Assembly: GCA_035511775.1 (NCBI GenBank)
Contig: DATKEZ010000116.1
Coordinates: 69-64,068, forward strand
Direction of reading: 5' to 3'
DNA length: 64,000 nucleotides
Origin: Steroidobacteraceae bacterium
Lineage (GTDB): Bacteria > Pseudomonadota > Gammaproteobacteria > Steroidobacterales > Steroidobacteraceae
Positions 5,520 through 51,227 of this stretch are shown piece by piece. How positions within the stretch are numbered: position 1 is the first letter of the stretch; every line of letters begins with the position of its first letter. Position numbers and translations under genes: made by a program. The notes below the pieces were generated by a model. The model was given only the letters and a program-made list of their open reading frames with translations, had not been told where the DNA came from and ran no database searches.

Positions 5520-6971
5520 TCAGAACACGAGGGCGAAGCGCGTCAGCAGCACGTTCTCATCCGGGCGGTCTCCCGAGGTGGCGCCGCCGTCAAAGCGCGT
5601 GCGCTCGTAGTCGAACATCCATTTGACATTCTGGTTGAGGTACCAGTTGACGCCGATGCCGAGCGCGCGTGCCGCCCGGGCGGACACCGTGGGATCGGCA
5701 AAGGAGGCCGCGCCGCCTGCAAACGCGGCCTCATCGACGTGCAGCTCATGGCAGCGCGCCACCAGCTCCCAGGCGCCCCAGCCGTAGTCACCGGGCTCGA
5801 AGGTGCTCAAGGGGGCGAAGCCGTTATAGGTCGCGCGTTCGCCGGTGAGGAACCACGTGACCGCGAGCTGCCAGGCGTCGCTGCCGAGCCGGGCCGAGCG
5901 GCTTGCGCTTGGATCCAGCTGGCGCGTGACTTGCTGCGAAGAGCGCGCGTACTCACCGAGTACTCCAAGGCTGCCGGCGTAGTAGTAGAACTGCGGTGTC
6001 ACGCGGTAGCGCCGTCCGTCTGCGTAGGTCGCGCCGTTGTCGGTACGGAAAGTGAAAAAGGTCTGCTGGCCCGGCGTGCGATACACCGACAACAACGTCG
6101 CGGCCGGCGTCCCGGCCTCGTTACCCCACGTGCCGCCCATGCCAAATCCCAATCCCCGCAGGCCCGCAATCGCGGAACCGGTGAAGGGCCGTGCAAATAC
6201 TCGCCAGTCGTAGTCCTTGCGCCCATCGTTGCTGTCGGCATCGGGTGAGGGGTTGGCGTCGCTGCTGTTGCCATCGGCAACGCCGTCGAATACCCCGAAG
6301 GCAAAGCTGAGCGCGCCGCCGAACACCTCGCCGCTCGCCTGCAGGCCGAGATCGCGGTAAGGAAGGAGCGCCGAGGGCAGCCCCACCTCAAGGAAGCGGT
6401 TGAACTGTTCGAACTGCAGACGCTCCAGGCCCACCGGGGCCTTGAACTTGCCGGCCTGGAGCACGAACCACGGCTCGAAGTGTCCGCTGACCCACGCGTC
6501 CATGAGCAACGCCTTGCCGTTGGCGAAATCGGGCATCAGGCGAAAGTCGTAGATGCGCGCGAAAGTGCCCTGGATGTCCGGGCGTGCGCGGCGCAACAGC
6601 CAGGTGTCCGCGGATTCGGGCGTCACCCTGTCGCTGTACCAGCGGCCATCTACCGAGACATTGCCTCGCAGCCGCAGCTGGGTCGCGCCATCGTCACTGG
6701 TGAAGGTGAAACCTGCAGCGCCGACGCTGGGCACTGCCGGCGCCGCCGCGGCCGCCGGGAGAGGAGGGGGCGCCAGCGAAGCGCCGCCGCCGGCAGCGGG
6801 CACGGACGCAGCGAGGCGTAAGAGCGCGCGCTCGAGCGCCTCGATACGCTTGTCCTGCTCCTCGATCCGTTTCCGGAGCGCGGCGCCGTCGGGCGCAGCC
6901 TCACTCTGGGCAAACGTCGCGGCCGGCAACAGCAGCAGAGCGGCCGCCGCCAGACGGGCGGTGCGGGTCAT
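5520..6971 (-). CDS. Phosphate-selective porin O/P family outer-membrane protein
   Basis: 483 aa. Signal peptide MTRTARLAAAALLLLPAATFAQ, an N-terminal coiled coil (LRKRIEEQDKRIEALERALLRL), then a beta-barrel ending ...LLTRFALVF, as in OprO/OprP-type porins. Confidence 0.75.
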   Translation of the reverse strand: MTRTARLAAAALLLLPAATFAQSEAAPDGAALRKRIEEQDKRIEALERALLRLAASVPAAGGGASLAPPPLPAAAAAPAVPSVGAAGFTFTSDDGATQLRLRGNVSVDGRWYSDRVTPESADTWLLRRARPDIQGTFARIYDFRLMPDFANGKALLMDAWVSGHFEPWFVLQAGKFKAPVGLERLQFEQFNRFLEVGLPSALLPYRDLGLQASGEVFGGALSFAFGVFDGVADGNSSDANPSPDADSNDGRKDYDWRVFARPFTGSAIAGLRGLGFGMGGTWGNEAGTPAATLLSVYRTPGQQTFFTFRTDNGATYADGRRYRVTPQFYYYAGSLGVLGEYARSSQQVTRQLDPSASRSARLGSDAWQLAVTWFLTGERATYNGFAPLSTFEPGDYGWGAWELVARCHELHVDEAAFAGGAASFADPTVSARAARALGIGVNWYLNQNVKWMFDYERTRFDGGATSGDRPDENVLLTRFALVF

Positions 6972-9194: not shown

Positions 9195-11917
9195 GTGCGC
9201 ATCGCGTCGGCAGCCGGCTCGCGCAGCGCCGCCTGGCGCTCATCGAGCACCTGCACCAGGTGATCCCGCAGCCGCTCGGCGGCGGCCGGCTCGAGCGGGC
9301 GGTTGTCGAAATCGGTGAGGTAGAACACGTCCTCGGCGCGCTCGCCGACGGTCATGATCTTGGCGGCGTGCAGCTCGACGCGCTCCGCCATCAACACCTT
9401 GCCGACCTCGCACAGCAGGCCCGGGCGATCGCCCGCGGTCAGCTCCAGCACCGAGCGACGGTTGCGCTCATCGACGCTGAGCGTGATCTGGGTGGGTGTG
9501 TTGAACATGCGCGCCTGGCGCGGCGCGCGCCGCGACACCGCGAACGGCGCATCCGCCGGTCCTCGGAGCGACCCCCATAGCGCCTGCTCGATCTCCACCT
9601 GCCGGTCGTTGTCGGTGATCGGCGCGCCGTCGTCCTCCAGCAGGTGATAGAGGTCGAGACTGAAGCCGTCACCGCTCGGAGTGATGCGCGCATCGACGAT
9701 GTTGAGGCCGAGCTGATCGAGCGCCGCGGTGGTACGCGCGAACCCATGGCGCCGCGGGCGCGTGTAAATCAGCGCCGCGGTGGTGCCGCGCACGCTGCGC
9801 GGCTCGAGCGCGACCAGCGGCTCATCGGATGCCGCGTCACGCTCGGCAAGGAGCCGTGCATGCCAGGCGATCTCTTCGGGCGAGTGCTGCAGGAAATAGC
9901 CGGCCGAGAAGCGCGTCCACGCGGCCGCGATGTCGCGCTCGCTGACACCGCGCTCGAGCAGCACGCGCCGCGCGGCGTCCTGGGTCTCGCGCACCAGGTG
10001 CTCCGGATCGATCGGGCTCTCCAGTCCCCGCCGCAGGGCGCGCTTCACGCGCTGGTAGAAATCCCCGAACAGCGATGCCTTCCAGGAGTTCCACAGCTTC
10101 GGATTGGTGGCGCGAACGTCCGCGCAGGTGAGCACGTACAGGTAATCCAGATGCGCCTCGTCACCGACCTTGCGCGCGAAGGCGTTGATGACCTGCGGGT
10201 CGCCGATGTCCTGCTTCTGCGAGGTGATCGACAGCTGCAGATGATTGCGCACCAGCCAGGCGACCAGGCGCGCATCGTACGGGGACAGACCCTGCTCGAG
10301 ACAGAACGCCTCCGCGTCCACCGCACCGAGCTCGGAATGATCGCCGCCGCGCCCCTTGGCAATGTCGTGGAACAGCGCGGCGAGGTAGGCGACTTCGCTG
10401 CGCGGCAGCTGCTGCATCACGCGCGAGGCTTCCGGCAGCTCATGGTCGTAACGCGGGATCGCGAAGCGGCGCAGGTTGCTCACCACGAACAGCGTATGTG
10501 CATCGACCGTGTAGGCATGGAACAGGTCGTACTGCATGCGCCCGACGATGCGCCCGAATGCCGGGATGTAACGTCCCAGCACGCCGTAGGTGTTCATGCG
10601 CCGCAGTTCGTGCGTGACGCCCACCGGCGAGCGCAGGATCTCGAGGAACAGGCGGTGATGGCGCGGGTTCTGGCGGAACTCCTCATCGATGAGCCACAGG
10701 TTGCGCGCCACCGCACGCATGGTCGAGGCGCGCACGCCACCGATGTCCGGGTTCTGCTGCAGCAGCACGAACAGCTCGAGCAGCGCCGCGGGGGTGCGCG
10801 CGAATACCTCCTCGCTGACCGCCTCCAGCGAGCCGTTGCGCACCTGGAAGCGCGCATTCAGCGGCCGCGGCGGCTCGCTCTCACTGAGGATCGCCTCGCG
10901 AAACAGCTGCAGCAGCAGCTCGTTCAGCAGGCTCACGTCCATCACCGTGCGGTAGTAGCGCTGCATGAACTGCTCGACCGCGAGGGTGTAGGAGGCATCC
11001 TCGTAACCGAAGCTCTGGGCGAGGCGGATCTGGTAGTCGAACAACAGGCGGTCCTCGCGCCGTGCGGTGAGGGTGTGCAGGCCAAAGCGCACCTTCCACA
11101 GAAACGCCTGCGCCTGCTGCAGGCGGCGCAGCTCCGCGAGCGTGAGGAACCCGTGCGTCACCAGGGCATCGAGGCTGTCGGCGCCGCCGAAATGCCGCTT
11201 CGCCACCCAGGCTATGGTCTGGATGTCGCGCAGGCCTCCGGGGCCGGTCTTGACGTTGGGCTCGAGGTTGTAGGCGGTGTCGTTGGCTTTCAGGTGCCGC
11301 TCGGCCTGCTCGCGCACTTTCGCCTCGAAGAACTGCTTCACCGGCCAGAGCCGCTCGGGTGCGAGCGCGCCGTGCATGGCGGCGAGCAGCTGCGCATCTC
11401 CGGCGAGGAGGCGCGCCTCGATGAGCGTCGTCATGACGCCGACGTCGCCGACGCATTCCTCGGCGCACTGCGCCACGGTGCGTACGCTGTGCCCGACCTC
11501 GAGCCCGATGTCCCACAGGAACGCCACCAGGGTGCCGATGACCGCGCTCCCCGCGGCGTCCGGCGGCCGCGGCACGAGCAGCAGGATGTCGATGTCGGAG
11601 CACGGGTGCAGCTCGCCGCGTCCGTAACCCCCGACCGCGACCAGGGCCCCGGCGAGCGCGGCGCAGTGCCTGCGCCATGCCTCGCGCAGCGCCGCGTCGA
11701 TGAGCGCCGCGCGCGCGTGCACCAGGTGCTCGACCGCCTCTTGCGCGACGAAGCGCGCCTTCAGCTCCCCGTGCGCCTGGCGCAGCAGCTCACGCCAGGC
11801 GGCCGGCTGGTCCGCGGCGGCGAGTTGTGCCGGCAATTGCGCCAGCAGCGGCCAGGAGGCGGCGGGGGACGTGACGGGGCGCGTTTCCTCGAGCAGCTCT
11901 GAGTCCCAGGCGCCCAT
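9191..11917 (-). CDS. glnD: Bifunctional [protein-PII] uridylyltransferase / uridylyl-removing enzyme
   Basis: 908 aa with a nucleotidyltransferase domain (GGYGRGELHPCSDIDILLL), an HD domain (LAALFHDIAKGRGGDH) and two C-terminal ACT domains. Confidence 0.95.
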   Translation of the reverse strand: MGAWDSELLEETRPVTSPAASWPLLAQLPAQLAAADQPAAWRELLRQAHGELKARFVAQEAVEHLVHARAALIDAALREAWRRHCAALAGALVAVGGYGRGELHPCSDIDILLLVPRPPDAAGSAVIGTLVAFLWDIGLEVGHSVRTVAQCAEECVGDVGVMTTLIEARLLAGDAQLLAAMHGALAPERLWPVKQFFEAKVREQAERHLKANDTAYNLEPNVKTGPGGLRDIQTIAWVAKRHFGGADSLDALVTHGFLTLAELRRLQQAQAFLWKVRFGLHTLTARREDRLLFDYQIRLAQSFGYEDASYTLAVEQFMQRYYRTVMDVSLLNELLLQLFREAILSESEPPRPLNARFQVRNGSLEAVSEEVFARTPAALLELFVLLQQNPDIGGVRASTMRAVARNLWLIDEEFRQNPRHHRLFLEILRSPVGVTHELRRMNTYGVLGRYIPAFGRIVGRMQYDLFHAYTVDAHTLFVVSNLRRFAIPRYDHELPEASRVMQQLPRSEVAYLAALFHDIAKGRGGDHSELGAVDAEAFCLEQGLSPYDARLVAWLVRNHLQLSITSQKQDIGDPQVINAFARKVGDEAHLDYLYVLTCADVRATNPKLWNSWKASLFGDFYQRVKRALRRGLESPIDPEHLVRETQDAARRVLLERGVSERDIAAAWTRFSAGYFLQHSPEEIAWHARLLAERDAASDEPLVALEPRSVRGTTAALIYTRPRRHGFARTTAALDQLGLNIVDARITPSGDGFSLDLYHLLEDDGAPITDNDRQVEIEQALWGSLRGPADAPFAVSRRAPRQARMFNTPTQITLSVDERNRRSVLELTAGDRPGLLCEVGKVLMAERVELHAAKIMTVGERAEDVFYLTDFDNRPLEPAAAERLRDHLVQVLDERQAALREPAADAMRT

Positions 11918-15648: not shown

Positions 15649-16206
15649 ATGCTCGAAGACCTCAAGAAAGATGCCGCTACGCGCATGGCGAAGTGCGTAC
15701 AGAACTTCCAGGCGGACCTGAAGAAGTTGCGCACCGGGCGGGCGCACCCGAGCCTCGTCGAGCACCTGAAGGTGGATTACTACGGCTCGGAGGTGCCGCT
15801 GCAGCAGGTGGCGAGCATCGCGGTCGAGGAGGGCCGCACGCTGGTCATTTCCCCGTGGGAGAAGAGCAGCGTGCAGGCGATCGAGAAGGCGATCTTCAAG
15901 TCCGATCTCGGGCTCACGCCCATGACCGCCGGCACCGTGATCCGCATTCCCATGCCGCCGCTCACCGAGGAACGGCGCCGCGAGATCACCAAGGTGCTGC
16001 GGCACGACGCGGAGAACGCCCGCGTCGCGGTGCGCAACGTACGCCGCGATGTCATGAACGACATCAAGGACATGCTGAAGGAGAAACTGGTCTCGCAGGA
16101 CGATGAGCGGCGCGCTGAGCTCGAGGTGCAGAAGCTCACCGACAAACACATCGCCGACATCGAGGCACTGCTCGCCGCCAAGGAGAAAGAGGTCATGCAG
16201 GTGTGA
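15649..16206 (+). CDS. frr: Ribosome recycling factor
   Basis: 185 aa. Typical RRF sequence (..RTGRAHPSLVEHLKVDYYGSEVPLQQVASI..). SD GAGGAG at 15635-15640. Confidence 0.95.
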   Translation: MLEDLKKDAATRMAKCVQNFQADLKKLRTGRAHPSLVEHLKVDYYGSEVPLQQVASIAVEEGRTLVISPWEKSSVQAIEKAIFKSDLGLTPMTAGTVIRIPMPPLTEERRREITKVLRHDAENARVAVRNVRRDVMNDIKDMLKEKLVSQDDERRAELEVQKLTDKHIADIEALLAAKEKEVMQV

Positions 16207-16949
16207 TGGTCGTCCCCGCCTTGAAACTCACTCCCAGGCACATCGCGATCACCATGGACGGCAACGGCCGCTGGGCGGCGGCGCGCGGTCTCACGCGCTC
16301 CGCCGGACACCGCGCCGGGCTCACGCCGGTGCGCATGTGTATCGAGGAATGCACGCGCCGCGGCGTGGAGGCCCTCACGCTGTTCGCCTTCTCGAGCGAG
16401 AACTGGGGGCGGCCGGCGCAGGAGGTCGGCAGTCTCATGGGTCTGTTCCTCGAGGCGCTCGAGCGCGAACTCGAGGAGCTGCACGCCAAGGGGGTGCGGC
16501 TGCGCTTCATCGGGGAGCGCCGCGATCTGCCGGTGCGGCTGCAGGCACGCTTCGCGGCCGCGCAGGAGCGCACCGCCGGCAACGGCGGGCTCAAGCTCCA
16601 GGTGGCCGTGAGTTACGGGGGACGCTGGGATATTATTCAGGCGACTCAGAAGCTTGCGAAGGAATGCTCGAGCGGTGCATTACGGCCGGAGGATATCAGC
16701 GAGGGCCGCTTCGCGGCTGAGCTCGCGCTCGCGGGACTACCGCCGGCGGAGCTGCTCATCCGCAGCGGTGGTGAGTACCGCGTCAGCAACTTCCTGCTCT
16801 GGGATCTCGCTTACGCGGAGCTGTATTTCAGTTCGCGGCTGTGGCCTGATTTCACGGTGACGGACCTGGAGGATGCGCTGGCGTTCTTCGCAAGCCGCGA
16901 GCGGCGCTTCGGCCACACCGCGGCGCCATCCGCGGCGGCGCAAGCCTGA
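16203..16949 (+). CDS. uppS: Ditrans,polycis-undecaprenyl-diphosphate synthase
   Basis: HIAITMDGNGRWA and FAFSSENWGRP motifs. The start is either GTG 16203 or ATG 16206; both overlap the frr TGA. Confidence 0.93.
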   Translation: MMVVPALKLTPRHIAITMDGNGRWAAARGLTRSAGHRAGLTPVRMCIEECTRRGVEALTLFAFSSENWGRPAQEVGSLMGLFLEALERELEELHAKGVRLRFIGERRDLPVRLQARFAAAQERTAGNGGLKLQVAVSYGGRWDIIQATQKLAKECSSGALRPEDISEGRFAAELALAGLPPAELLIRSGGEYRVSNFLLWDLAYAELYFSSRLWPDFTVTDLEDALAFFASRERRFGHTAAPSAAAQA

Positions 16950-32271: not shown

Positions 32272-33708
32272 GTGCCACGCGCGGTGCGCCGCGGGACCGA
32301 GGGGTTTGGCCCGCGCTCACTCGGCCGCCGTCTGGCACAGCTGCTGCCCGGCTTCCCGGACGTCGCCGTGTGCGTGGCCTTCAGCGGCGGGGCGGACTCT
32401 ACCGCTCTGCTCGCCGCGCTGGCACAGCTCAAGCGCTCGCCGCTCAAGGTGCGCGCCCTGCACATCGATCACCGCCTGCACCCGCACTCGGTGCGTTGGG
32501 TAGCGCACTGCCGGCGGGTGGCGCGCGCCCTCGGCGTGCCGCTGCAGGTGCGCACCGCGAACCTCGCACGCCTGCGCGGCGAGTCGCTCGAAGCCGCCGC
32601 GCGTGCCGCGCGCTACCAGCTGCTCGCCGCGGCGCTCGCGCCGCAGGAGGCGCTCCTGACGGCGCACCACGAGGATGATCAGCTCGAGACCGTGCTGCTG
32701 CAGCTGCTGCGGGGCGCGGGTCTCGCCGGCATGGCCGCCATGCCTGCACGGGCGGCCTTTGCGCGTGGCGCCCTGGTGCGTCCGCTGCTGTCCTGGTCGC
32801 GCGCCGAGCTCACCGCCTGGGTGCGCTCGCAGGGGCTGGAGTGGATCGAGGACCCGAGTAATGCCGAGCTGCGTCACGATCGCAACTACCTGCGCACGCG
32901 GGTGCTGCCATTGATCCGGGAGCGTTGGCCCGCGGCCGCGGCCACCGTGGCGCGTGCGGCGCGCCATGCCGCGGAAGCGCAGCGGCTGCTCGAGGCCCTG
33001 GGTGGCGCCGATGCCGCGCGCGCGAGCTTCGGGCCCATGCTGTCGGCGAAACGGCTGCGCGCACTGCCGCCCGAACGCCGCCGCAACGCGCTGCGGTTCT
33101 GGATCACGGCCGCGGGGTACCGCGCGCCTCCCGCCAGCCGGCTCGAGGAGATTGCCGGTCCGCTGCTGCAGGCGCGTGCCGATGCGCAGCCCGTCGTGAC
33201 CTGGGAGGGCGCGCTGCTGCAGCGCCAGGCGGATCTACTGTCGCTGCGCGCGGCTGCCGGGGGCGCACCCGGCGCGTCGCCCGGCGCACTGCCCGGGAGC
33301 GCTCGCTCGCGGCGCGCCGCGGCGCAGCCGCCGGCCGCAAGAGCGCGCTTCGAGGAAGTCAGCTGGCCGTGGCGCCGGCGCAGGACCTGCGTGCTGCCCG
33401 CGCCGCTCGGACGGCTCACGCTGAAGCGCGATGCGCGCGGACCGCTGGATCTGGAGGCACTCCCCGCCGCGCTCATCATCCGCGCACGCCGGGGGGGCGA
33501 GCGCCTGCGCCCGCTGCGCGGCGGGCGGCGTCGCGCGCTCAAGAGCCTGCTGCAGGAAGCGCGCGTACCGGTGGCCGAGCGCGCGCGACTGCCGCTGATT
33601 TTCGCGGGCTCGACGCTGGTCGCGGTCGCTGGCCTGTGGCTCGATGAGTCGGTGCAGGCGAGCGCTGCGAGCCGGCGGCGCGCCCGCCTGATCTGGAGCA
33701 CGGCTTAG
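32272..33708 (+). CDS. tilS: tRNA(Ile)-lysidine synthase
   Basis: PP-loop VAFSGGADSTALL followed by HIDHRLHP. GTG 32272 lies just after the accA stop and is a tentative start. Confidence 0.85.
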   Translation: MPRAVRRGTEGFGPRSLGRRLAQLLPGFPDVAVCVAFSGGADSTALLAALAQLKRSPLKVRALHIDHRLHPHSVRWVAHCRRVARALGVPLQVRTANLARLRGESLEAAARAARYQLLAAALAPQEALLTAHHEDDQLETVLLQLLRGAGLAGMAAMPARAAFARGALVRPLLSWSRAELTAWVRSQGLEWIEDPSNAELRHDRNYLRTRVLPLIRERWPAAAATVARAARHAAEAQRLLEALGGADAARASFGPMLSAKRLRALPPERRRNALRFWITAAGYRAPPASRLEEIAGPLLQARADAQPVVTWEGALLQRQADLLSLRAAAGGAPGASPGALPGSARSRRAAAQPPAARARFEEVSWPWRRRRTCVLPAPLGRLTLKRDARGPLDLEALPAALIIRARRGGERLRPLRGGRRRALKSLLQEARVPVAERARLPLIFAGSTLVAVAGLWLDESVQASAASRRRARLIWSTA

Positions 33709-40955: not shown

Positions 40956-41714
40956 GTGAAGATCCTGATCAGCAACGATGACGGCTTTCGTGCCGAGGGC
41001 ATCCGCCGCCTGCGCGAGGCGCTGGCGACGCTCGCCGAGGTGACCGTCGTCGCGCCTGACCGCAACAAGAGCGGCGCGAGCAACTCACTCACTCTGGATG
41101 TGCCGCTGCGCGTGTTCGAGTCCGAGCCGGGGGTGTACTTCGTGCCGGGCACGCCCACCGACTGCGTGCACCTGGCTATCTCCGGCCTGTTCGACTTCGA
41201 GCACGACATGGTGGTCTCGGGGGTGAACGACGGCGCGAATCTGGGCGACGACGTGCTGTACTCCGGCACGGTGGCGGCGGCGGTCGAGGGGCGCTTCCTC
41301 GGCCTGCCGACCATCGCGGTGTCACTGTGCACCGGCACGGCCGGGGGCGGCCACTTCACAACCGGCGCCGAGGTCGCGCGCCGGCTGGTGGCGCAGCTGC
41401 TGAAGAGGCCGCTGCAGTCCGCGCTCATCCTGAACGTCAACGTGCCCGACGTGCCGTTCGCACAGCTGCGAGGCTTTCGCGCCAGCCGGCTCGGCTATCG
41501 CCACCGCTCCGAGCCGGTCATGCGGGCGCAGGACCCGCGCGGTCGTGCGGTGTACTGGATCGGTCCCGCCGGCGCGGAGCAGGACGCGGGTCCGGGTACC
41601 GACTTCGACACCGTCGCCCAGGGATACGTGTCGGTGACGCCGCTGCAGGTCGACCTCACCCGTCACGCGGCGCTGTCCGCAGTGGGGAGCTGGCTGGAAG
41701 GCATCAATGACTGA
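40956..41714 (+). CDS. surE: 5'/3'-nucleotidase SurE
   Basis: (GTG)[22 protein letters not shown]... and [22 protein letters not shown]. Confidence 0.95.
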
Positions 41715-42369
41715 TCTGCGCCTGTCCGGGATCGGCATGACTTCCGCCCGCACCCGCGATCGGCTGGTGCAGCGTCTGCGCGAGCAGGGCATTGCGAATC
41801 TCGCGGTGCTCGATCGTATTCGCAATGTGCCGCGTCATATTTTCGTCGATGAAGCGCTCGGCAGCCGCGCCTACGAGGACACGGCGCTGCCGATCGGCTT
41901 CGGCCAGACAATCTCACAGCCCTACATCGTGGCGCGCATGACCGAGGCGCTGCTCGAGGCGGGCGCGGCCGACAGCATCCTGGAGGTGGGCACGGGGTGT
42001 GGTTACCAGACCGCGGTGCTCGCGCCGCTCGTGGCGCGCCTGTACACGATCGAGCGTATCGAACCGCTGCTGACGCGCGCGCGCGAGCGCCTCAAGGAGC
42101 TCGGGATCAGGAACGTGCGCTTTCGTCACGGCGACGGCACCCTCGGCTGGAAGGCGCACGCACCCTTCGATGGCATCCTGGTGGCGGCCGCGCCGCTCAC
42201 GGTGCCCGAGGCGCTCGTGAGGCAGCTGCGCGTCGGCGGGCGGCTCCTCGTGCCCCTGGGGCCTGAAGGCGAGCAGGAGCTGGTACGGATCACGCGCCGC
42301 GAGCAGGGTGTGCAGCGCGAGTCACTGGGAGCCGTGGCCTTCGTGCCGTTGCTGGGTGGCACAGCCTAG
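41707..42369 (+). CDS. pcm: Protein-L-isoaspartate O-methyltransferase
   Basis: Contains [12 protein letters not shown] and the SAM motif [16 protein letters not shown]. Overlaps surE by 8 nt. Confidence 0.95.
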
Positions 42370-42421
42370 CCGGCCCGCCAACCCGAGACAGTTACAGTCC
42401 CGTTCATAGCAGGGGGTGCAC

Positions 42422-45400
42422 ATGAGGCTACTGGCGGCTGTGGCTCTGGTTGTGGTCTCGGCCACTGCGGGCGCTCGTGGGACGGCGGAACAGCCCCTCG
42501 TTCCGCGCGCGCTCGAGGACTGGCAGGGGTGGGTGCTCAAGGGCAAGGAATTTCATCGCTGTCCCTTCCTCGCGGGCTCAAACATCGCCGACGCCAATTC
42601 CTATCGGTGTGTCTGGCCGGAGCGCCTGCTGCTCAGCGTCGACGCGCACGGCGGAACCTTCAGCCAGCGCTGGCAGGTCTACACCGAGAGCTGGGTCGCC
42701 TTGCCGGGCGATCTTGAGCGCTGGCCGCAGGCGGTATCGGTTGACGGCGCTCCCGCGGCGCTGGTCGCCCGGGGCGACGTGCCTTACGTGCGGCTGACGG
42801 CCGGCTCTCACGCGCTGAGTGGCAGATTCGTCTGGGACGCGCGGCCCGAGACCTTGACGATTCCCACCCAGACGGCGCTGCTCGATCTGCTCGTTGATGG
42901 GCAACGTGTGCTGCAGCCGGAGCGGCCGGCCGGCCGGCTCGCGCTCGGGCACCAGGGCGCGGCCGCCGAACCGCGCCGGCTCGATGTGCAGGTCTATCGG
43001 CTGATCGAGGATGACATTCCCCTGCGCCTGGTGACGCGCCTGCGGCTGCGCGCAGCCGGAGACGCGCGTGAGGAGCAACTTGCGCGGCTGCTCCCGGCCG
43101 GCTTCATTCCGGTGTCGCTCCAGGGCCCACTGCCCGCACGGCTCGAGTCCGACGGTCGACTGCGTGTCCAGTTACGTGCCGGTCGCTTTGAGCTCGTTCT
43201 CACCGCGCGGCAGGCTCAGCCCTCGGCGACGCTGTCCTCACCCGGGGAACCCGCTGCTGCGCGCGACGAAGTGTGGAGTTTTGCGGCCAACGATCGGCTG
43301 CGTGTCGCCGCGGTCGAGGGAGGTGCGGGGATCGATCCGGCGCAGGCGAATGTGCCGGAGGACTGGCGCGGGTACCCTGCATTTCGGATGGCACCGGGTT
43401 CGGAGCTCAGGATCGTCGAACGCAGCCGCGGCCTCTCCAACACGGACCAGAACCGGCTGCACTTGCGGCGTCGATTGTGGCTCGACTTCGATCACGACGG
43501 TTTCACCGCTGTCGACGAAGTGAGCGGCACACTGCGACGCGACTGGCGCCTCGGGATGCGAGAGCCCTACCGTCTCGCCAGCGCGCGCACCGGCACCGAG
43601 GCGTTGCTCGTGACGAGTTCTGCATCCCAGGCAGAGACGGGTGTCGAGTTGCGTAGCCCCTCCGTGCGGCTCAGCGTGGTGGCGCGCAGCGCGCACCCGT
43701 ATCGCGCCCTTCCCGCGACGGGCTGGACGAACAGCTTCGAGGGGGTATCAGGCGAGCTGTATCTGCCCCCCGGCCATCGTCTGCTTGCCGTCCTCGGGGC
43801 CGATGTATCCCCGACCGCCTGGCTCGACCGCTGGGGCTTGTGGAACCTCTTCGGCGTGCTGGTGATCGTGGTGTTCTCGTACTGGGTCGCGGGGCCTTCT
43901 ACCGCAACGATCGGCGGGCTCGGCCTCCTTCTGACCTACCAGGCTGCTCCGGAGTTGATCTGGGTCTGGGGCAATCTGCTCGCCGCTATCGCCTTGGCGC
44001 GCGCCGCCCCCGAGGGGCGACTCGCGCGGGTCGCGAGTGTTTACAGGACGGTGAGTTTCGCGGTACTTGCTCTCGCGCTTGTGCCGTTCACCTGGAGCGA
44101 GGTACGGCACGCGATCTATCCGCAGCTCGAGGTGAGCGGCTACGCCCGGCAGCGGGTGGCGGCTCCCATGCCGGCTGCTGCGCCACTCGAAAGCAGGGTT
44201 GTAGAGGAAATTACCTCGGCCGCCGCCCGAGCGGACATGAGCAGCCTCGTGGTGAGCGGCAGTCGAGCGACCTCGGCCGCGGAGCCGATACTCGCCCGCT
44301 ACGCCGCCGGAACGCTGGTACAGGCGGGGCCCGGGATACCCGCGTGGAACTACGGGACGCAGCCGTTCGGCTGGACGGGTCCGGTCGAGCCCGATCAATC
44401 GCTGCGCTTTGTCGTGCTCGGCCCGATCGGGGTGGCCCTGTGGCGCATCGCCGGTGTGGCAGCGCTGGCGTGGTTCTTCATCCGGCTGGCGCGCAACAGC
44501 TTCGGCACGCGTCTGCGACTACCCGGATTCCTGAGGCCGGGCGCCGCGATGGGCGCGCTGATGCTGGCGTGCGTCGCCGCGGTCCCTCACGGCGCGCGTG
44601 CCGAGTCCACGCCCGATCCAGCACTGCTCAACGAGCTGCGTGATCGTTTGACCCAGGCGCCGGAGTGCGCTCCGACGTGTGCCGAGATCATGCAGGCGCA
44701 AGTCCACGTCAGCGCAGATCGGGTCCAGATCGACTTGAAAGCGAGCGCGCTCGCCCCGCTGGCTGTGGCCGTACCCTCCGCAGGAGATCGCTGGCAGATC
44801 GATTCGGTGGCAGTCGACGGTGCCTCGAGTCTTGCGGTAGCACGAGAGCCCGACGAGGCGCTGTGGGTGCCGCTCAAGAGCGGGGTACGCACGATCCGCA
44901 TCGAGGGCCGCCTCGTGGGCGACAGCGTGCACCTGGCTTTTCCACTGGTGCCGCGCACGGTCTCGGTCGATGCAGCGGGCTGGGATGTGGCAGGCGTGCA
45001 CGCTGGACGGCTGGTGTCCGGTGCCCTGGATCTCACGCGCCAGCCGCGCACCGGATCGGTCGCGACGACCCCGAATCCGGCAGCCGGTGAGGCTTTCCCG
45101 GCGTTCGTGCGCGTCGTGCGAAATTTCCGGCTCGATCTTGACTGGTCGGTTGCGACGACCGTTCAGCGAGTCGCTCCGGAATCGGCGGCCTTCACGGTGG
45201 CCGTGCCGCTCGTTGCGGGAGAATCGGTGCTGAGCGAAGGTCTCGACGTCCGACGCGACGGTGTCGCGCTCGTAGGGCTGGCGCCCGGCCAGGCCGAGCT
45301 CGAGTGGACTTCGAGTCTCGCGCGCAGCGATCGGCTGGCGCTGCGGCTCACCGCGACGCCAGCCCGCGCCGAGGTCTGGCGGTTCGTTGTCAGCCCGCAG

Positions 45401-46486
45401 TGGCGCGTGGAGTTCAGCGGACCACCGGCGGTGCTGCCGGACGATCTGGCTGCCACCGCGTGGGTGTTCGAATACCGGCCGCGCGTCGGCGAGCAACTCG
45501 AACTCGCGGTGACGCGTCCAGCGGCCGTGCCGGGGCGAACACTCGCCATCGATGCAGTGCACCAGCGTGCCCGCATCGGACGCCACTCATCGGAACACGA
45601 ACTCGAGCTGCGCTATCGCAGCACCCAGGGCGGCCGCCATGCGATCCAGCTCCCGAAGGAGGGCAACGTTACGCAGGTGGAAGTCGACGGCAAGCCAACT
45701 CAGATTCGGCCCGACAGGGGTGAGCTATCCTTATCTGTCTTGCCCGGCGAGCACACGGTCCGCATTGCATGGCGTTCGAAGGACGGCGCGTCGATGGCGT
45801 CCCGTCCTGACACCGTGGACCTGAGCGCACCGTCGAGTAACGTCACGACGACTCTCGCCTTGCCTGCCGACCGGTGGCCTCTGGTTGCGATCGGCGGCGG
45901 CGTAGGACCGGCTTTTCTGTACTGGGGTGAGCTGCTGGTGTTTCTCGTCGTGGCGACATTACTCGGTCGTTGGCCGCGGTCACCGCTGCGCACCACCGAG
46001 TGGCTCGTGCTCGGCCTGGGGCTCTCGACTCTCTCCTGGCGGGTGCTCGTTACGGTGGCCGCGTGGCTGTTCGCGATGCGCTGGCGAGAGCAGTGGCGCG
46101 GCGCGTACGCTCTCGAGCGCTGGCAGTTCAACCTGCTGCAGTGCGCGCTCGCGGCGCTCACGCTGTTCGCGGTGACGAGTCTCGTCTTCTCCGGAGTGCG
46201 TTATGGGCTGCTGGCCTCGCCCGACATGGGTGTCACGGGGCCGGGCTCCGGTGGCAATACCTTCAGCTGGTTCGTCGATCGGGCGGCTTCGACGTTGCCG
46301 CACCCGGTGGTATATAGCCTGCCGCTGTGGGTCTACCGCACGATCATGTTCGCCTGGGCGTTGTGGATCGCGATCGCGCTTGCGCGTTGGCTGCGCTTTG
46401 CCTGGCGAGCCTGGAGCGCCGGAGGCATCTGGCGAGGCGCGGTCCTCCCGCCGACGCTCGGGGCTGCCGGCCAGACTCCCCGGTAG
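42422..46486 (+). CDS. Large (1354 aa) uncharacterised membrane protein built from two paralogous modules, each a signal or anchor segment, a roughly 450-aa ectodomain and a multi-TM block
   Basis: ATG 42422 lies 5 nt after AGGGGG. The Sec-type leader is MRLLAAVALVVVSATAGARG. Hydrophobic clusters lie at about aa 470-560, 680-735, 1190-1270 and 1310-1335. I recognise no catalytic or family motif. See the findings for the internal duplication. Confidence 0.8.
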   Translation: MRLLAAVALVVVSATAGARGTAEQPLVPRALEDWQGWVLKGKEFHRCPFLAGSNIADANSYRCVWPERLLLSVDAHGGTFSQRWQVYTESWVALPGDLERWPQAVSVDGAPAALVARGDVPYVRLTAGSHALSGRFVWDARPETLTIPTQTALLDLLVDGQRVLQPERPAGRLALGHQGAAAEPRRLDVQVYRLIEDDIPLRLVTRLRLRAAGDAREEQLARLLPAGFIPVSLQGPLPARLESDGRLRVQLRAGRFELVLTARQAQPSATLSSPGEPAAARDEVWSFAANDRLRVAAVEGGAGIDPAQANVPEDWRGYPAFRMAPGSELRIVERSRGLSNTDQNRLHLRRRLWLDFDHDGFTAVDEVSGTLRRDWRLGMREPYRLASARTGTEALLVTSSASQAETGVELRSPSVRLSVVARSAHPYRALPATGWTNSFEGVSGELYLPPGHRLLAVLGADVSPTAWLDRWGLWNLFGVLVIVVFSYWVAGPSTATIGGLGLLLTYQAAPELIWVWGNLLAAIALARAAPEGRLARVASVYRTVSFAVLALALVPFTWSEVRHAIYPQLEVSGYARQRVAAPMPAAAPLESRVVEEITSAAARADMSSLVVSGSRATSAAEPILARYAAGTLVQAGPGIPAWNYGTQPFGWTGPVEPDQSLRFVVLGPIGVALWRIAGVAALAWFFIRLARNSFGTRLRLPGFLRPGAAMGALMLACVAAVPHGARAESTPDPALLNELRDRLTQAPECAPTCAEIMQAQVHVSADRVQIDLKASALAPLAVAVPSAGDRWQIDSVAVDGASSLAVAREPDEALWVPLKSGVRTIRIEGRLVGDSVHLAFPLVPRTVSVDAAGWDVAGVHAGRLVSGALDLTRQPRTGSVATTPNPAAGEAFPAFVRVVRNFRLDLDWSVATTVQRVAPESAAFTVAVPLVAGESVLSEGLDVRRDGVALVGLAPGQAELEWTSSLARSDRLALRLTATPARAEVWRFVVSPQWRVEFSGPPAVLPDDLAATAWVFEYRPRVGEQLELAVTRPAAVPGRTLAIDAVHQRARIGRHSSEHELELRYRSTQGGRHAIQLPKEGNVTQVEVDGKPTQIRPDRGELSLSVLPGEHTVRIAWRSKDGASMASRPDTVDLSAPSSNVTTTLALPADRWPLVAIGGGVGPAFLYWGELLVFLVVATLLGRWPRSPLRTTEWLVLGLGLSTLSWRVLVTVAAWLFAMRWREQWRGAYALERWQFNLLQCALAALTLFAVTSLVFSGVRYGLLASPDMGVTGPGSGGNTFSWFVDRAASTLPHPVVYSLPLWVYRTIMFAWALWIAIALARWLRFAWRAWSAGGIWRGAVLPPTLGAAGQTPR

Positions 46487-46749
46487 AGTATTCACATGAT
46501 GTATACGTGCTAACGCTTTGATTACAAGCGCTAAAAATATCCTAGCCCTCTGACTCGGATCAAGCAGCGCAGGAGAAAAGCCCTACAAATCAGCGGCCCA
46601 GGACTACGTGCGGATGCCGGGAAAGCCCCCACTGGCGGCAGGAAAAATCTTTATCCCTCAAAGAGCTTGCAGGGGCTTCTGCGACGCGTTTAACATGCGC
46701 TCCCTGTCTGCTAACGACGACAGCCAAAAAAGCCAAAGCGGAGGGTAAC

Positions 46750-46886
46750 CGGCAGAAGACACAGGGTGGAGGGAGTCGCGACAAGAGCAACAACGGTCCG
46801 AAACAAAAAAAACAGTGCAATTGTTCGAGTCTGTCAGCTTCGAATGATTGTTTGGTTGGTTGAGCCTCCCCCTGTGTCTTCTGCCG
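46750..46886. repeat. Near-perfect 22-bp inverted repeat enclosing 92 nt (candidate structured RNA or MITE-like element)
   Basis: The left arm CGGCAGAAGACACAGGGtGGAGG (46750-46772) is the reverse complement of CCTCCCCCTGTGTCTTCTGCCG (46865-46886), apart from one bulged T. Confidence 0.85.
46805..46850 (-). terminator. AT-rich imperfect hairpin followed by T8 on the minus strand; possible terminator of the DUF498 gene or the 3' end of a small RNA
   Basis: 46818-46828 (CAATTGTTCGA) pairs with 46840-46850 (TCGAATGATTG) at 9 of 11 positions. The run 46805-46812 reads T8 on the minus strand, 5 nt after the stem. Confidence 0.3.
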
Positions 46887-46908
46887 ATCATCCTTGCGCC
46901 TCCAGGCG

Positions 46909-47300: not shown

Positions 47301-48344
47301 GTGCGCGAGATCGTCATTGTGGTCGCCGACCTGTACCTGCCGCGCGGCGCCAATGGCGCGCCGCTCGGCGGCGCCGCCGAACCGGGGGCCGCTCCGGGAA
47401 TCGAAAGCGCGGGCCGCTTCGGGGAGCGCGCGGCACTCGAGCACGGTTGGCGCGAGTGGCTCGCGCACGCGCTTGGCCGCGGGGATCTCGCCGGCGCCGC
47501 CCCGGCATGCGTCGCCGCCGCGGAGCTGGCGCCGGGGGCTGCGCCCGCGGGCGCGAGCGGCACGCTGTGGATCGCTACCCCGCTGCACCTCAGCGCGGGC
47601 GGTGCGCGCCTGGATCTGGATCATCGCGGCGTCCTGCGCCTGCCGCACGCCGAGCTCGCAACTCTCGCGGCCGCCTTTCAGCAGACCTTTGGCGCTTCCG
47701 GCTTCACACTTACGCCGCTGTCGTCGGGGGACTTTCTCCTCAGCACCGCCGGCATCGCCGCCCTCGCCACCACCGAGCCGGCCCGCTGCGCGGGCGGCGA
47801 CGTCGCCGATGCCCTGCCTCGCGGAGCCGCCGCCGCGCCACTGCGGCGCCTGCTGGCCGAGATCGAGATGTGGCTGCACGGTGAGGCGCTGAACGAGGCG
47901 CGCCTGCGCCGCGGCGAGCCGCCGGTCACGACACTGTGGCCGTGGGGTGCCGAGGGGCGGGCGCTGCAGCCAGAGCGGCGTGCGGGGCGTGCCCTGCGCG
48001 CCTTCGGGGCGGACCCGTATGTGAGCGGTCTGTGGCGCCTGCAGGCGGACCTGTGCCGCGCGCTTCCGCAGCGCCTGCAGGATGTGCTCCCCGACGAGCG
48101 CGCCTCCGGGGTGGTGCTGGTGGTGGAGGTGGGACGGGAGTTGCAGCCTGACCGGCACGACACGCTCCACCAGGCCCTGGCGCGTCTCGATGCGCGCTTC
48201 GTGTCGCCGGCGCTCCAGGCGCTGCGTCGCGGTGAGGTCGGGAGTGTGACGCTGATCGCCAACGACACGCGAATCACGCTGCGCCGCCGCAGTCATCTGC
48301 GGCTGTGGCGGCGCCCGCGGGCGGGCCTGCGGAGCTTCGCGTGA
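47301..48344 (+). CDS. Hypothetical protein resembling the RpfE-type regulatory protein family found upstream of recJ in Xanthomonas
   Basis: 347 aa, Ala/Leu/Arg-rich, with no motif I can name. The call rests on position (directly upstream of, and overlapping, recJ, then prfB-lysS) and on recollected family features. Confidence 0.4.
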   Translation: MREIVIVVADLYLPRGANGAPLGGAAEPGAAPGIESAGRFGERAALEHGWREWLAHALGRGDLAGAAPACVAAAELAPGAAPAGASGTLWIATPLHLSAGGARLDLDHRGVLRLPHAELATLAAAFQQTFGASGFTLTPLSSGDFLLSTAGIAALATTEPARCAGGDVADALPRGAAAAPLRRLLAEIEMWLHGEALNEARLRRGEPPVTTLWPWGAEGRALQPERRAGRALRAFGADPYVSGLWRLQADLCRALPQRLQDVLPDERASGVVLVVEVGRELQPDRHDTLHQALARLDARFVSPALQALRRGEVGSVTLIANDTRITLRRRSHLRLWRRPRAGLRSFA

Positions 48345-50059: not shown

Positions 50060-50131
50060 GCTGCGCGCCGCGGTGTTAGCATGCCAAACTTTGGTTCACG
50101 CGCGCCGCGCTCCGCGCGGGCCAGGACGTGT

Positions 50132-51227
50132 ATGGAAGTCAATCTACTCAAGCGCCAACTCAAGGATCTGGGTGAACGTATTACCTCGTTACGGGGGTTT
50201 CTTTGAGTACGACCGCAAGCGCGAGCGGCTCGAGGAAGTTGCGCGCGAGCTGGAGGATCCCGCCGTCTGGTCGAACCCGGCGCGGGCGCAGGAGCTCGGG
50301 CGCGAGCGCGCCCGGCTGACGAGCGACCTCGGCGAGATCGACCGCGCCACCAAGGGCATCGGCGAGGCTACCGAGCTGCTGGAACTGGCCGAGGCCGAGG
50401 GCGATGAGCGCGCCGCGCGCGACCTCGAGCGCGACGGGCAGCGCCTCGAGGCGGAGGTGCGGCACCTGGAGCTGAAACGCATGTTCCGCGGGGAAATGGA
50501 CTCGCACAGCGCGTTTCTCGACATCCAGGCGGGCGCCGGCGGTACCGAGGCGCAGGACTGGGCGCAGATGCTGCTGCGTATGTACCTGCGCTGGGGCGCG
50601 GCGCGTGGCTTCGCCTGCGAGGTGATCGATTCCAGTCCCGGCGAAGTGGCCGGCATCAAGAGCGCCACCGTGGAAGTGCAGGGCGAGTACGCCTACGGTT
50701 GGCTGCGCACCGAGACCGGCGTGCATCGCCTGGTGCGCAAGTCGCCATTCGATTCCGGTAACCGCCGCCATACCTCCTTCGCATCCGTGTTCGTCTCCCC
50801 CGAGATCGATGACGACATCCAGATCGAAATCAATCCCGCGGACCTGAAGGTGGATGTCTACCGCTCCTCCGGAGCGGGCGGACAGCACGTCAACAAGACC
50901 GAGTCGGCGGTGCGCATCACCCATATGCCCACCGGCATCGTGGCCGCCTGCCAGAACGAGCGCAGCCAGCACAAGAACCGCTCCACCGCCATGAAGATGC
51001 TCAAGGCGAAGCTCTACGAGCTGGAGGTCAACAAGCGCAATGCCGCCGCCCGGGTGCTCGAGGATTCCAAGTCGGATGTCAGCTGGGGCAACCAGATCCG
51101 CTCGTACGTCCTCGATCAGTCGCGCATCAAGGACCTGCGAACCGGAGTGGAGGTGGGCAACACCGCCGCGGTGCTCGATGGCGATCTGGATCAGTTCCTG
51201 GAAGCCTCGCTCAAGGCAGGCGTATAA
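50132..51227 (+). CDS. prfB: Peptide chain release factor 2, needing a programmed +1 frameshift: join(50132..50203, 50205..51227)
   Basis: Frame 0 reads [24 protein letters not shown] then TGA (50204-50206). The +1 frame continues [12 protein letters not shown]... through the SPF motif (RKSPFDS) and GGQ motif (SGAGGQHVN). Confidence 0.95.
50192..50207 (+). promoter_or_regulatory. prfB +1 frameshift site (internal SD-like GGGGG plus slippery CTT TGA)
   Basis: CGG GGG TTT CTT TGA G here, compared with AGG GGG TAT CTT TGA C in E. coli. Confidence 0.9.

Follow-up and report, generated by a model that had tools for sequence, protein, structure and literature searches.

A two-module, internally duplicated membrane protein encoded downstream of pcm in a Steroidobacteraceae bacterium belongs to a widespread, undescribed family

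The open reading frame and its family

The 64,000-nt stretch of contig DATKEZ010000116.1 analysed here (Steroidobacteraceae bacterium, assembly GCA_035511775.1; hereafter the window) is a core-genome stretch. It carries acrB-oprM, glnD, map, rpsB, pyrH, cdsA, bamA, skp, fabZ, lpxB, rnhB and dnaE, followed by pyrG, kdsA, eno, ftsB, ispD, truD, smr (minus strand), surE and pcm, and then by the open reading frame (ORF) that is the subject of this study; beyond it lie a DUF498 gene (minus strand), a gene for a 347-aa protein, recJ, prfB, lysS, sdhCAB and rpoE-rseA-rseB. The ORF is a single frame of 1354 codons plus stop that runs without interruption from its ATG to a TAG, and tryptophan makes up 3.6% of its residues (coordinates of this and other features are given in Table 1). 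An earlier reading of the window, made by a model from the letters alone (the sequence-only reading), had placed the ORF on the same strand as pcm, 52 nt behind it and with a good Shine-Dalgarno sequence; the coordinates (pcm stop codon at 42367-42369) and the AGGGGG motif read directly from the DNA agree with this. No terminator-like site or hairpin was found in the gap between pcm and the ORF, and surE-pcm is probably co-transcribed with the ORF at this locus. The GC content at third codon positions (GC3) of the ORF, 0.79, differs mildly from the 0.85-0.91 of surE, pcm, truD, eno, recJ and the DUF498 gene.

The sequence-only reading had assigned the protein to no recognisable family and had seen no enzyme, transporter or secretion-system signature in it, and our profile searches were equally empty. 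Searches of Pfam-A, NCBIfam and PADLOC with the whole protein gave no match, nor did Pfam searches with four pieces of the protein at expectation values (E) up to 10. Against PDB sequences, phmmer returned a chance match only (E 0.41), and a profile built from 62 family sequences found nothing at E up to 10. No enzyme-family profile matched the protein, and at E up to 10 there was no Pfam match to ACR_tran, MMPL, SecD_SecF, Patched, ABC2_membrane or 60KD_IMP. In the literature on bacterial Ost1/ribophorin-like proteins and on duplicated Steroidobacteraceae membrane proteins, we found nothing describing the family.

Homologues are nonetheless plentiful. A word-indexed search yielded 940 of them, among which a 100% identical protein is listed as a 'hypothetical protein' of a Steroidobacteraceae metagenome-assembled genome (MAG). 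When residues 1-1200 were compared exhaustively with 1.84 billion cluster representatives (50% identity clusters), 3,322 proteins were recovered at E <=1e-3 and 1,706 at E <=1e-30. The best 150 of these 3,322 are nearly all ∼1310-1600 aa long, cover both modules described below and extend down to 31% identity; the few shorter proteins among them look like contig-end fragments, and no single-module relative was found among these 150. Conservation over the full length holds to ∼27% identity. Among the genera with full-length members are Thalassotalea, Rhodanobacter, Dokdonella, Kinneretia, Azoarcus, Desulfuromonas and Sandaracinus; named members include Kinneretia aquatilis, a Desulfobacterales MAG, Sandaracinus amylolyticus and Azoarcus sp. 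KH32C (WP_015452075.1), and Gamma- and Betaproteobacteria, Desulfobacterota and Myxococcota are all represented. The named members are without exception annotated as hypothetical, and none carries a precomputed Pfam domain. Scanning one genome per GTDB species with sequence patterns gave 228 loci, mostly from Steroidobacteraceae, a group that is over-represented, with other taxa undercounted, because the scan patterns were narrow.

As a working definition, we took family members to be proteins of ∼1310-1500 aa with two colinear modules, the invariant cysteines C47/C63 and C749/C753, invariant R193/R900, the elements E283-x-W285 and E984-x-W986, and the motifs GVGPAxLYW and PDMG; these features are found in alignments of 62 and 235 members, for which the window protein serves as the reference. 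We conclude that the ORF is a genuine, strongly conserved gene of a large, widespread and undescribed family, apparently present in single copy. The family thus counts thousands of members in at least three phyla, yet has neither a Pfam or NCBIfam model nor a sequence relative in the PDB. The newness applies to the protein family and to its architecture, with function not included.

Module architecture and internal duplication

To describe the protein, each half was modelled separately with AlphaFold2 from a 61-row alignment, giving a mean predicted local distance difference test (pLDDT) score of 80.5 for module 1 and 80.1 for module 2. The models of both halves follow a common plan: a short helix bearing a cysteine pair, ∼400 residues of beta structure forming three sandwiches, four helices, a periplasmic beta-hairpin and a long last helix. 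The second and third helices of each membrane block form a tight hairpin, and the cytoplasmic loops are only 1-10 residues long, with no coiled coil. Several beta-sandwich domains had been suggested for the ectodomains from recurrent sequence motifs, in line with the three per module seen in the models and with the Foldseek matches presented below. A variable, disordered insert with a pLDDT below 50 interrupts the periplasmic loop of the membrane block in module 1 only; across its columns of the family alignment, identity is ∼0.2-0.3 and the share of gaps 27-29%. At the C-terminus, pLDDT falls below 50 from residue 1342 on.

Hydropathy analysis located hydrophobic segments at residues 3-21, 472-490, 508-530, 537-560, 669-687, 703-721, 1164-1182, 1195-1219, 1238-1256 and 1302-1320, that is, the leader, five segments at 472-721 and four at 1164-1320, much as the sequence-only reading had listed them. 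Of 233 family members, 216 have a hydrophobic leader at the N-terminus; in the ORF protein, its sequence suggests that a signal peptidase may cut after A-G-A. Of the two leaders proposed earlier, this first one is retained, while the second corresponds to an internal transmembrane (TM) helix that opens module 2; likewise, the earlier count of four to five plus about four helices holds in its plan and is refined here to five TM helices per module. The orientation of the chain was assessed from the density of lysine plus arginine in 235 members, which is 0.15-0.26 in the predicted cytoplasmic loops versus 0-0.04 in the short periplasmic loops. The Arg-rich cytoplasmic loop preceding the helix at 703-721 has a density of 0.23, and residues 1323 to the end one of 0.15. 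These family-wide positive-inside counts, along with the cysteine pairs conserved in each, place both ectodomains, beta-sandwich stalks of ∼440 residues, in the periplasm. The resulting topology runs from the leader through ectodomain 1 in the periplasm, five TM helices, a further single TM helix, ectodomain 2 in the periplasm and five TM helices to a cytoplasmic tail. Taken together, the models, the hydropathy and the positive-inside counts bear out the assignment to the envelope, more precisely to the inner membrane.

Table 1. Features of the ORF and of its upstream junction (residue numbers refer to the ORF protein; nucleotide coordinates to the window)
Feature	Coordinates	Strand	Basis	Details
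Whole ORF, two-module inner-membrane protein of an undescribed family	42422..46486	+	ORF list, translation	ATG at 42422, TAG ending at 46486
surE and pcm, upstream of the ORF	40956..42369	+	Pfam, NCBIfam	surE 40956-41714; pcm 41707-42369
Shine-Dalgarno-like AGGGGG, 5 nt before the ATG	42411..42416	+	read from sequence	
Residues 1-20, signal peptide or signal anchor (MRLLAAVALVVVSATAGARG, A-G-A before R19)	42422..42481	+	hydropathy	
Residues 21-468, periplasmic ectodomain 1	42482..43825	+	AlphaFold2, Foldseek, conserved residues, positive-inside counts	short helix with disulfide-type pair C47/C63, then sandwiches A1 (∼26-180), B1 (∼181-315) and C1 (∼316-465)
Residues 472-694, membrane block 1	43835..44503	+	AlphaFold2, hydropathy, loop lysine plus arginine densities	helices 473-490, 492-508, 512-528 and 533-565; loop with beta-hairpin 645-666; helix 668-694
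Residues 571-625, variable low-confidence insert in the periplasmic loop of membrane block 1	44132..44296	+	AlphaFold2, alignment	
Residues 703-721, internal TM helix ('second leader'), cytoplasm to periplasm, opens module 2	44528..44584	+	hydropathy	
Residues 724-1160, periplasmic ectodomain 2	44591..45901	+	AlphaFold2, hhalign, residue equivalences, Foldseek	helix with invariant C749-x3-C753, then sandwiches A2, B2 and C2
Residues 1164-1332, membrane block 2	45911..46417	+	AlphaFold2, conservation, loop charges	helices 1167-1183, 1191-1204, 1206-1224 and 1233-1264; periplasmic beta-hairpin 1280-1301; helix 1302-1332; strongly conserved motifs include GVGPAxLYW, EWLxLGxGLS and PDMG
Residues 1333-1354, Arg/Trp-rich cytoplasmic tail	46418..46483	+	lysine plus arginine density, AlphaFold2	

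The sequence-only reading had described the protein as internally duplicated. In a direct BLASTP comparison, module 1 and module 2 share 29% identity over 221 aa (E 0.002), and the by-eye alignment of residues 92-139 with 782-835 is reproduced there. With hhalign, an alignment restricted to close relatives (at least 52% identity) gave a probability of only 25-37%, whereas 62 sequences at 30-55% identity gave 98.5% (E 1.8e-15, 402 columns); since the diverse alignment is decisive, the weakness of the shallow one is superseded. Residues 61-490 are colinear with 751-1185, a stretch that takes in all three beta-sandwiches plus the first TM helix, and the domains also match pairwise (A1-A2, E 1.5e-10; B1-B2, 8.5e-5; C1-C2, 1.6e-4). 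Domains A and C are in addition related to one another (A2-C2, E 4.5e-8), which explains the recurring 'VDG...G-x-H' motif that the earlier reading had remarked on.

At eight equivalent positions, the two modules carry the same family-invariant residue (C63/C753, P95/P785, G128/G821, R193/R900, E283/E984, W285/W986, G459/G1158 and W471/W1168), and the cysteine pairs already noticed in both ectodomains, C47/C63 and C749/C753, are kept in 98% of 235 homologues. The duplication of the helix blocks, also proposed earlier, needs qualification: the first TM helix is duplicated by sequence, but beyond it no sequence similarity between TM blocks 1 and 2 was found with either the shallow or the diverse alignment, and the remaining helices match in secondary-structure plan only. 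We conclude that the protein arose by an ancient tandem duplication.

Conservation is distributed unevenly over the two copies. In the 235-member alignment, 118 positions are at least 93% conserved; they comprise 24 Trp, 23 Gly, 20 Pro, 15 Leu, 11 Arg, 6 Glu, 5 Asp and 4 Cys, with Ser, Thr, Asn, Gln and Tyr represented once each and His and Lys not at all. The charged invariants cluster in domains B1 and C1 of module 1. When the modules are aligned, D197, R216, E217, D305, R350, D365, R376, E409, R411 and D461 of module 1 correspond to L, A, A, L, A, S, A, S, L and G, respectively, in module 2, which has thus lost most of the conserved charged residues of its counterpart. Pseudo-dimers in which one half does the work typically show such an asymmetry. 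Within the membrane blocks, the conserved positions (W467, W471, G636, W642, P1267, W1283 and D1286) lie at the periplasmic interface or in loops, and no invariant charged or polar residue was found in the helix cores of the same alignment.

Fold likeness and a candidate role

When the models were compared with PDB structures using Foldseek, both modules independently retrieved Ost1/RPN1 of yeast and human oligosaccharyltransferase (OST) first (6ezn_A, 8agb_E, 7oci_A, 6c26_1, 6s7o_E and 8pn9_E), with E from 2.7e-9 to 2.4e-7 and a probability of 1.0; for the model of ectodomain 2, the top seven matches were all Ost1/RPN1. The next matches were to the N-domains of M1 aminopeptidases and LTA4H, to integrin legs, to pilins and to PIG-T, while a viral structure library gave nothing meaningful. 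Ost1, the M1 N-domains, integrin legs and PIG-T are represented in these matches by non-catalytic beta-sandwich modules.

The resemblance to Ost1/ribophorin I is one of plan: stacked beta-sandwiches on the non-cytoplasmic side are followed directly by a membrane anchor. Ost1 is, however, a single-pass type I protein with two sandwiches and one TM helix, whereas each module of the ORF protein has three sandwiches and five TM helices, and here the unit is duplicated within one chain and is bacterial. No GT-C or STT3/PglB gene was found in the family neighbourhoods surveyed (described in the next section). The N-terminal beta-domain of M1 aminopeptidase/LTA4 hydrolase superposes on one sandwich per module (probability 1.0, root-mean-square deviation ∼6-7 Å, 166-177 columns), but the ORF protein has no thermolysin-like catalytic domain, no HEXXH and no Peptidase_M1_N match. 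A third likeness, to BiPBP_C and macroglobulin-type Ig-like sandwiches (PF06832, PF07703), lies in the V-x-V-D-G ... P-G-x-H-x-V motif that recurs in domains A and C. Of 34 distant members scanned with Pfam, four matched BiPBP_C (best E 0.0032), all below the curated thresholds, and the window protein itself was unmatched; nor does the ORF protein have a penicillin-binding protein or alpha-2-macroglobulin context. Membership in Ribophorin I (PF04597) by profile was not supported, there being neither a Pfam match nor an hhalign probability above 6.5%.

We tentatively favour, with somewhat less than even confidence, a reading in which the ORF protein is a non-catalytic, membrane-anchored periplasmic binding or scaffold platform for an extended envelope polymer, with module 1 as its working half. 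The two modules would pack as an intramolecular pseudo-dimer. By analogy, a platform on the periplasmic side of the inner membrane could keep an unfolded polypeptide, a glycan or a lipid-linked glycan close to that membrane, a holding role of the kind proposed for Ost1/ribophorin I and the M1 aminopeptidase N-domain. Since the invariant Arg/Asp/Glu/Trp set is kept in module 1, domains B1 and C1 would provide the working surface, with module 2 as a degenerate, structural partner. Rather than forming a channel, the membrane blocks may serve as anchor and interface, because their conserved positions are interfacial or in loops and conserved polar residues are missing from the helix cores. The non-catalytic character is suggested by a set of 118 conserved positions without His or Lys and by a fold that matches non-catalytic domains.

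Several observations weigh against this reading. The Foldseek TM-scores to Ost1/RPN1 are only 0.15-0.27, although such values are expected for flexible multi-domain stalks, and stacked beta-sandwiches are a very common design. We compared all module and domain profiles by hhalign with an alignment of 116 Ribophorin I proteins seeded with yeast Ost1 and human RPN1 (100% identical to 6c26_1 and 6s7o_E), and no probability exceeded 6.5%, indicating that the Ost1 likeness is one of fold only. Furthermore, the AlphaFold2 halves were predicted separately, with predicted template modelling scores of 0.46-0.51, so that their packing as a pseudo-dimer is conjectural. Finally, the invariant acidic residues and the many tryptophans are also compatible with a glycoside-active enzyme, and RND-type transporters, too, combine a (1+5)x2 topology with a pair of large periplasmic domains.

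The latter raises the possibility that the protein is a 12-helix transporter or a lipid- or polymer-handling machine resembling RND/SecDF or ABC-2/PIP proteins, which shift a substrate inside the inner membrane or out of it. A module of the ORF protein, with one TM helix followed by a large periplasmic domain and then five TM helices, is indeed ordered like RND/SecDF halves, YidC and ABC-2/PIP proteins; in RND proteins the same plan is an internal duplication with 12 helices, and the membrane blocks of the ORF protein are among its best conserved parts. Yet hhalign comparison of the module and TM-block profiles with the window's own AcrB gave probabilities of at most 0.3%, no transporter family was matched in Pfam at E up to 10, and the helix cores contain no invariant charged residue. 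In addition, the all-beta stalks in the periplasm differ from RND porter domains, the five-helix block has a tight helical hairpin and a periplasmic beta-hairpin that set it apart from RND, YidC and ABC-2 proteins, and no conserved ATPase, membrane-fusion or outer-membrane partner was found in the surveyed neighbourhoods. We therefore consider a transporter unlikely. Homology to RND proteins as such was rejected on the AcrB comparison, the lack of a Pfam match and the lack of intramembrane charged residues, and membership in YidC/Oxa1 (PF02096, PF14849) on the lack of a Pfam match and of a cytoplasmic coiled coil in the models.

We also doubt that the protein is a membrane-anchored periplasmic enzyme, such as a glycan- or peptide-active hydrolase or transferase using the acidic residues of module 1. 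The invariant D197, E217, E283, D305, D365, E409 and D461, with 24 Trp and 11 Arg, do resemble carbohydrate-active sites, and the high share of tryptophan noted above fits such a role. Against it stand the Foldseek matches, which are to non-catalytic domains only (Ost1, M1 N-domain, integrin legs, MG/Ig-like), the absence of any enzyme-family profile match, and the lack of conserved His, Lys or, apart from the single position counted above, Ser.

For experiments, the analysis provides a topology, domain boundaries, a likely working half (B1 and C1) and ∼15 invariant charged or aromatic residues. To our knowledge, the OST accessory subunit Ost1 is thought to be specific to archaea and eukaryotes; if its likeness to the ORF protein were due to common descent, this subunit would gain a bacterial relative.

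Genomic context and neighbouring features

The sequence-only reading had attached significance to the position of the ORF, where nlpD(-rpoS) normally follows surE-pcm. In agreement with its statement that neither gene is present, the 64-kb window yielded no LysM/M23 gene and no rpoS, and rpoE, accompanied by rseA and rseB, was the one sigma factor found there. Together with the same-strand placement 52 nt after pcm, the lack of an intervening terminator and the preservation of the arrangement in relatives of 74-92% identity, this absence could suggest that the protein functionally replaces NlpD or the nlpD-rpoS module. However, the ORF protein has no LysM or Peptidase_M23 match, no M23 motif in frame and no lipobox (there is no Cys after the leader), and synteny largely refutes the idea. 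Among 82 family loci from other genomes, surE-pcm lies upstream in one (L061, 92% identity); the adjacency to pcm is also kept in a relative of 74% identity (L090) but is absent from one of 62% identity. Orthologues thus follow pcm only at identities of at least 74%, the adjacency being missing in 81 of the 82 loci and in every distant lineage, and the family occurs in many genomes whatever adjoins pcm. An nlpD replacement, attractive as it was, is the wrong inference from this locus and is extremely improbable. The synteny points instead to placement after pcm by a genus-level rearrangement, and surE-pcm has no general link to the protein family.

Members in Thalassotalea, Rhodanobacter, Kinneretia, Desulfuromonas, Sandaracinus and Azoarcus lie in unrelated contexts, and no gene neighbour common across lineages was found in the surveyed loci. 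All-against-all clustering of the flanking ORFs of the 82 loci, which is clouded by spurious high-GC ORFs, revealed just two real neighbours that recur, a DUF924 gene in divergent and a 126-aa gene in convergent orientation, at 26 loci, mostly from Steroidobacteraceae MAGs. This looks like vertical synteny rather than an operon, and co-transcription with the family gene is excluded for both. An M1 aminopeptidase gene lies within a few kb of the family gene in only two of the 82 loci. The lack of a shared neighbour indicates that the gene is normally monocistronic and stands alone, its attachment to surE-pcm being a local event. A stand-alone, single-copy gene conserved over its full length to ∼27% identity points to a constrained envelope function that annotation has not seen.

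At one locus of a metagenomic member with 31% identity (L085, 4292-8762), genes for a 712-aa protein without a Pfam match, a transglutaminase-core protein and a TPR protein follow tightly downstream on the same strand; this cluster may be a lineage-specific operon.

Two kinds of locus could suggest a link to the handling of envelope proteins that have aged or carry isoaspartate damage. The gene pcm is immediately upstream in the window, L061 and L090, and on pAZKH of Azoarcus sp. KH32C (NC_020548.1, L092) the start of an isoaspartyl peptidase/L-asparaginase gene (10996-11913 of the locus) overlaps the homologue's stop by 4 nt. Ost1-like and M1-N-domain-like folds are, moreover, polypeptide-holding modules. 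These are two independent events only among ∼92 loci, with pcm or isoaspartyl peptidase found at no other surveyed locus; the theme was chosen post hoc and chance remains plausible, and Pcm is cytoplasmic whereas the ectodomains face the periplasm. We regard this link as very unlikely. A broader proposal, to which we give little credence, would combine it with the platform reading: the family would be a founding bacterial platform on the Ost1/ribophorin I plan, a pseudo-dimer that holds its substrates in the periplasm and offers extended polypeptides or lipid-linked glycans to a partner encoded elsewhere, perhaps tied to isoaspartate-damaged envelope proteins.

Downstream, a non-coding spacer of 422 nt (46487-46908) separates the ORF from the convergent DUF498 gene. 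It looks AT-richer than its surroundings, 1-kb windows there having a GC content of 0.62-0.65 versus ∼0.70 elsewhere, and contains an inverted repeat whose 25-nt arms (46742-46766 and 46870-46894) are 88% complementary and 103 nt apart; an Rfam search of the spacer returned a spurious microRNA match only. The 347-aa gene (47301-48344, plus strand) has no Pfam match and shows a far sub-threshold NCBIfam likeness to cofactor-independent phosphoglycerate mutase (E 2.8e-7, 30 bits versus a cutoff of 320). Its place between the DUF498 gene and recJ is kept in L061 and L090.

Elsewhere in the window, two ORFs on the minus strand (15780-16484 and 32317-32967) have a gene-like GC3 of 0.82 and no Pfam match at the thresholds used. 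The longest ORF of prfB (50073-51227, plus strand) reaches ∼30-40 residues beyond the N-terminus of the RF2 model; prfB lacks the canonical CTTTGAC frameshift site, whose sole copy in the window lies at 5589-5595 on the minus strand. The sole Rfam family found in the window is the t44 RNA (RF00127; 12797-12909, plus strand; 49.3 bits, above the gathering score), which starts 37 nt upstream of the longest rpsB ORF start (12834) and overlaps that start.

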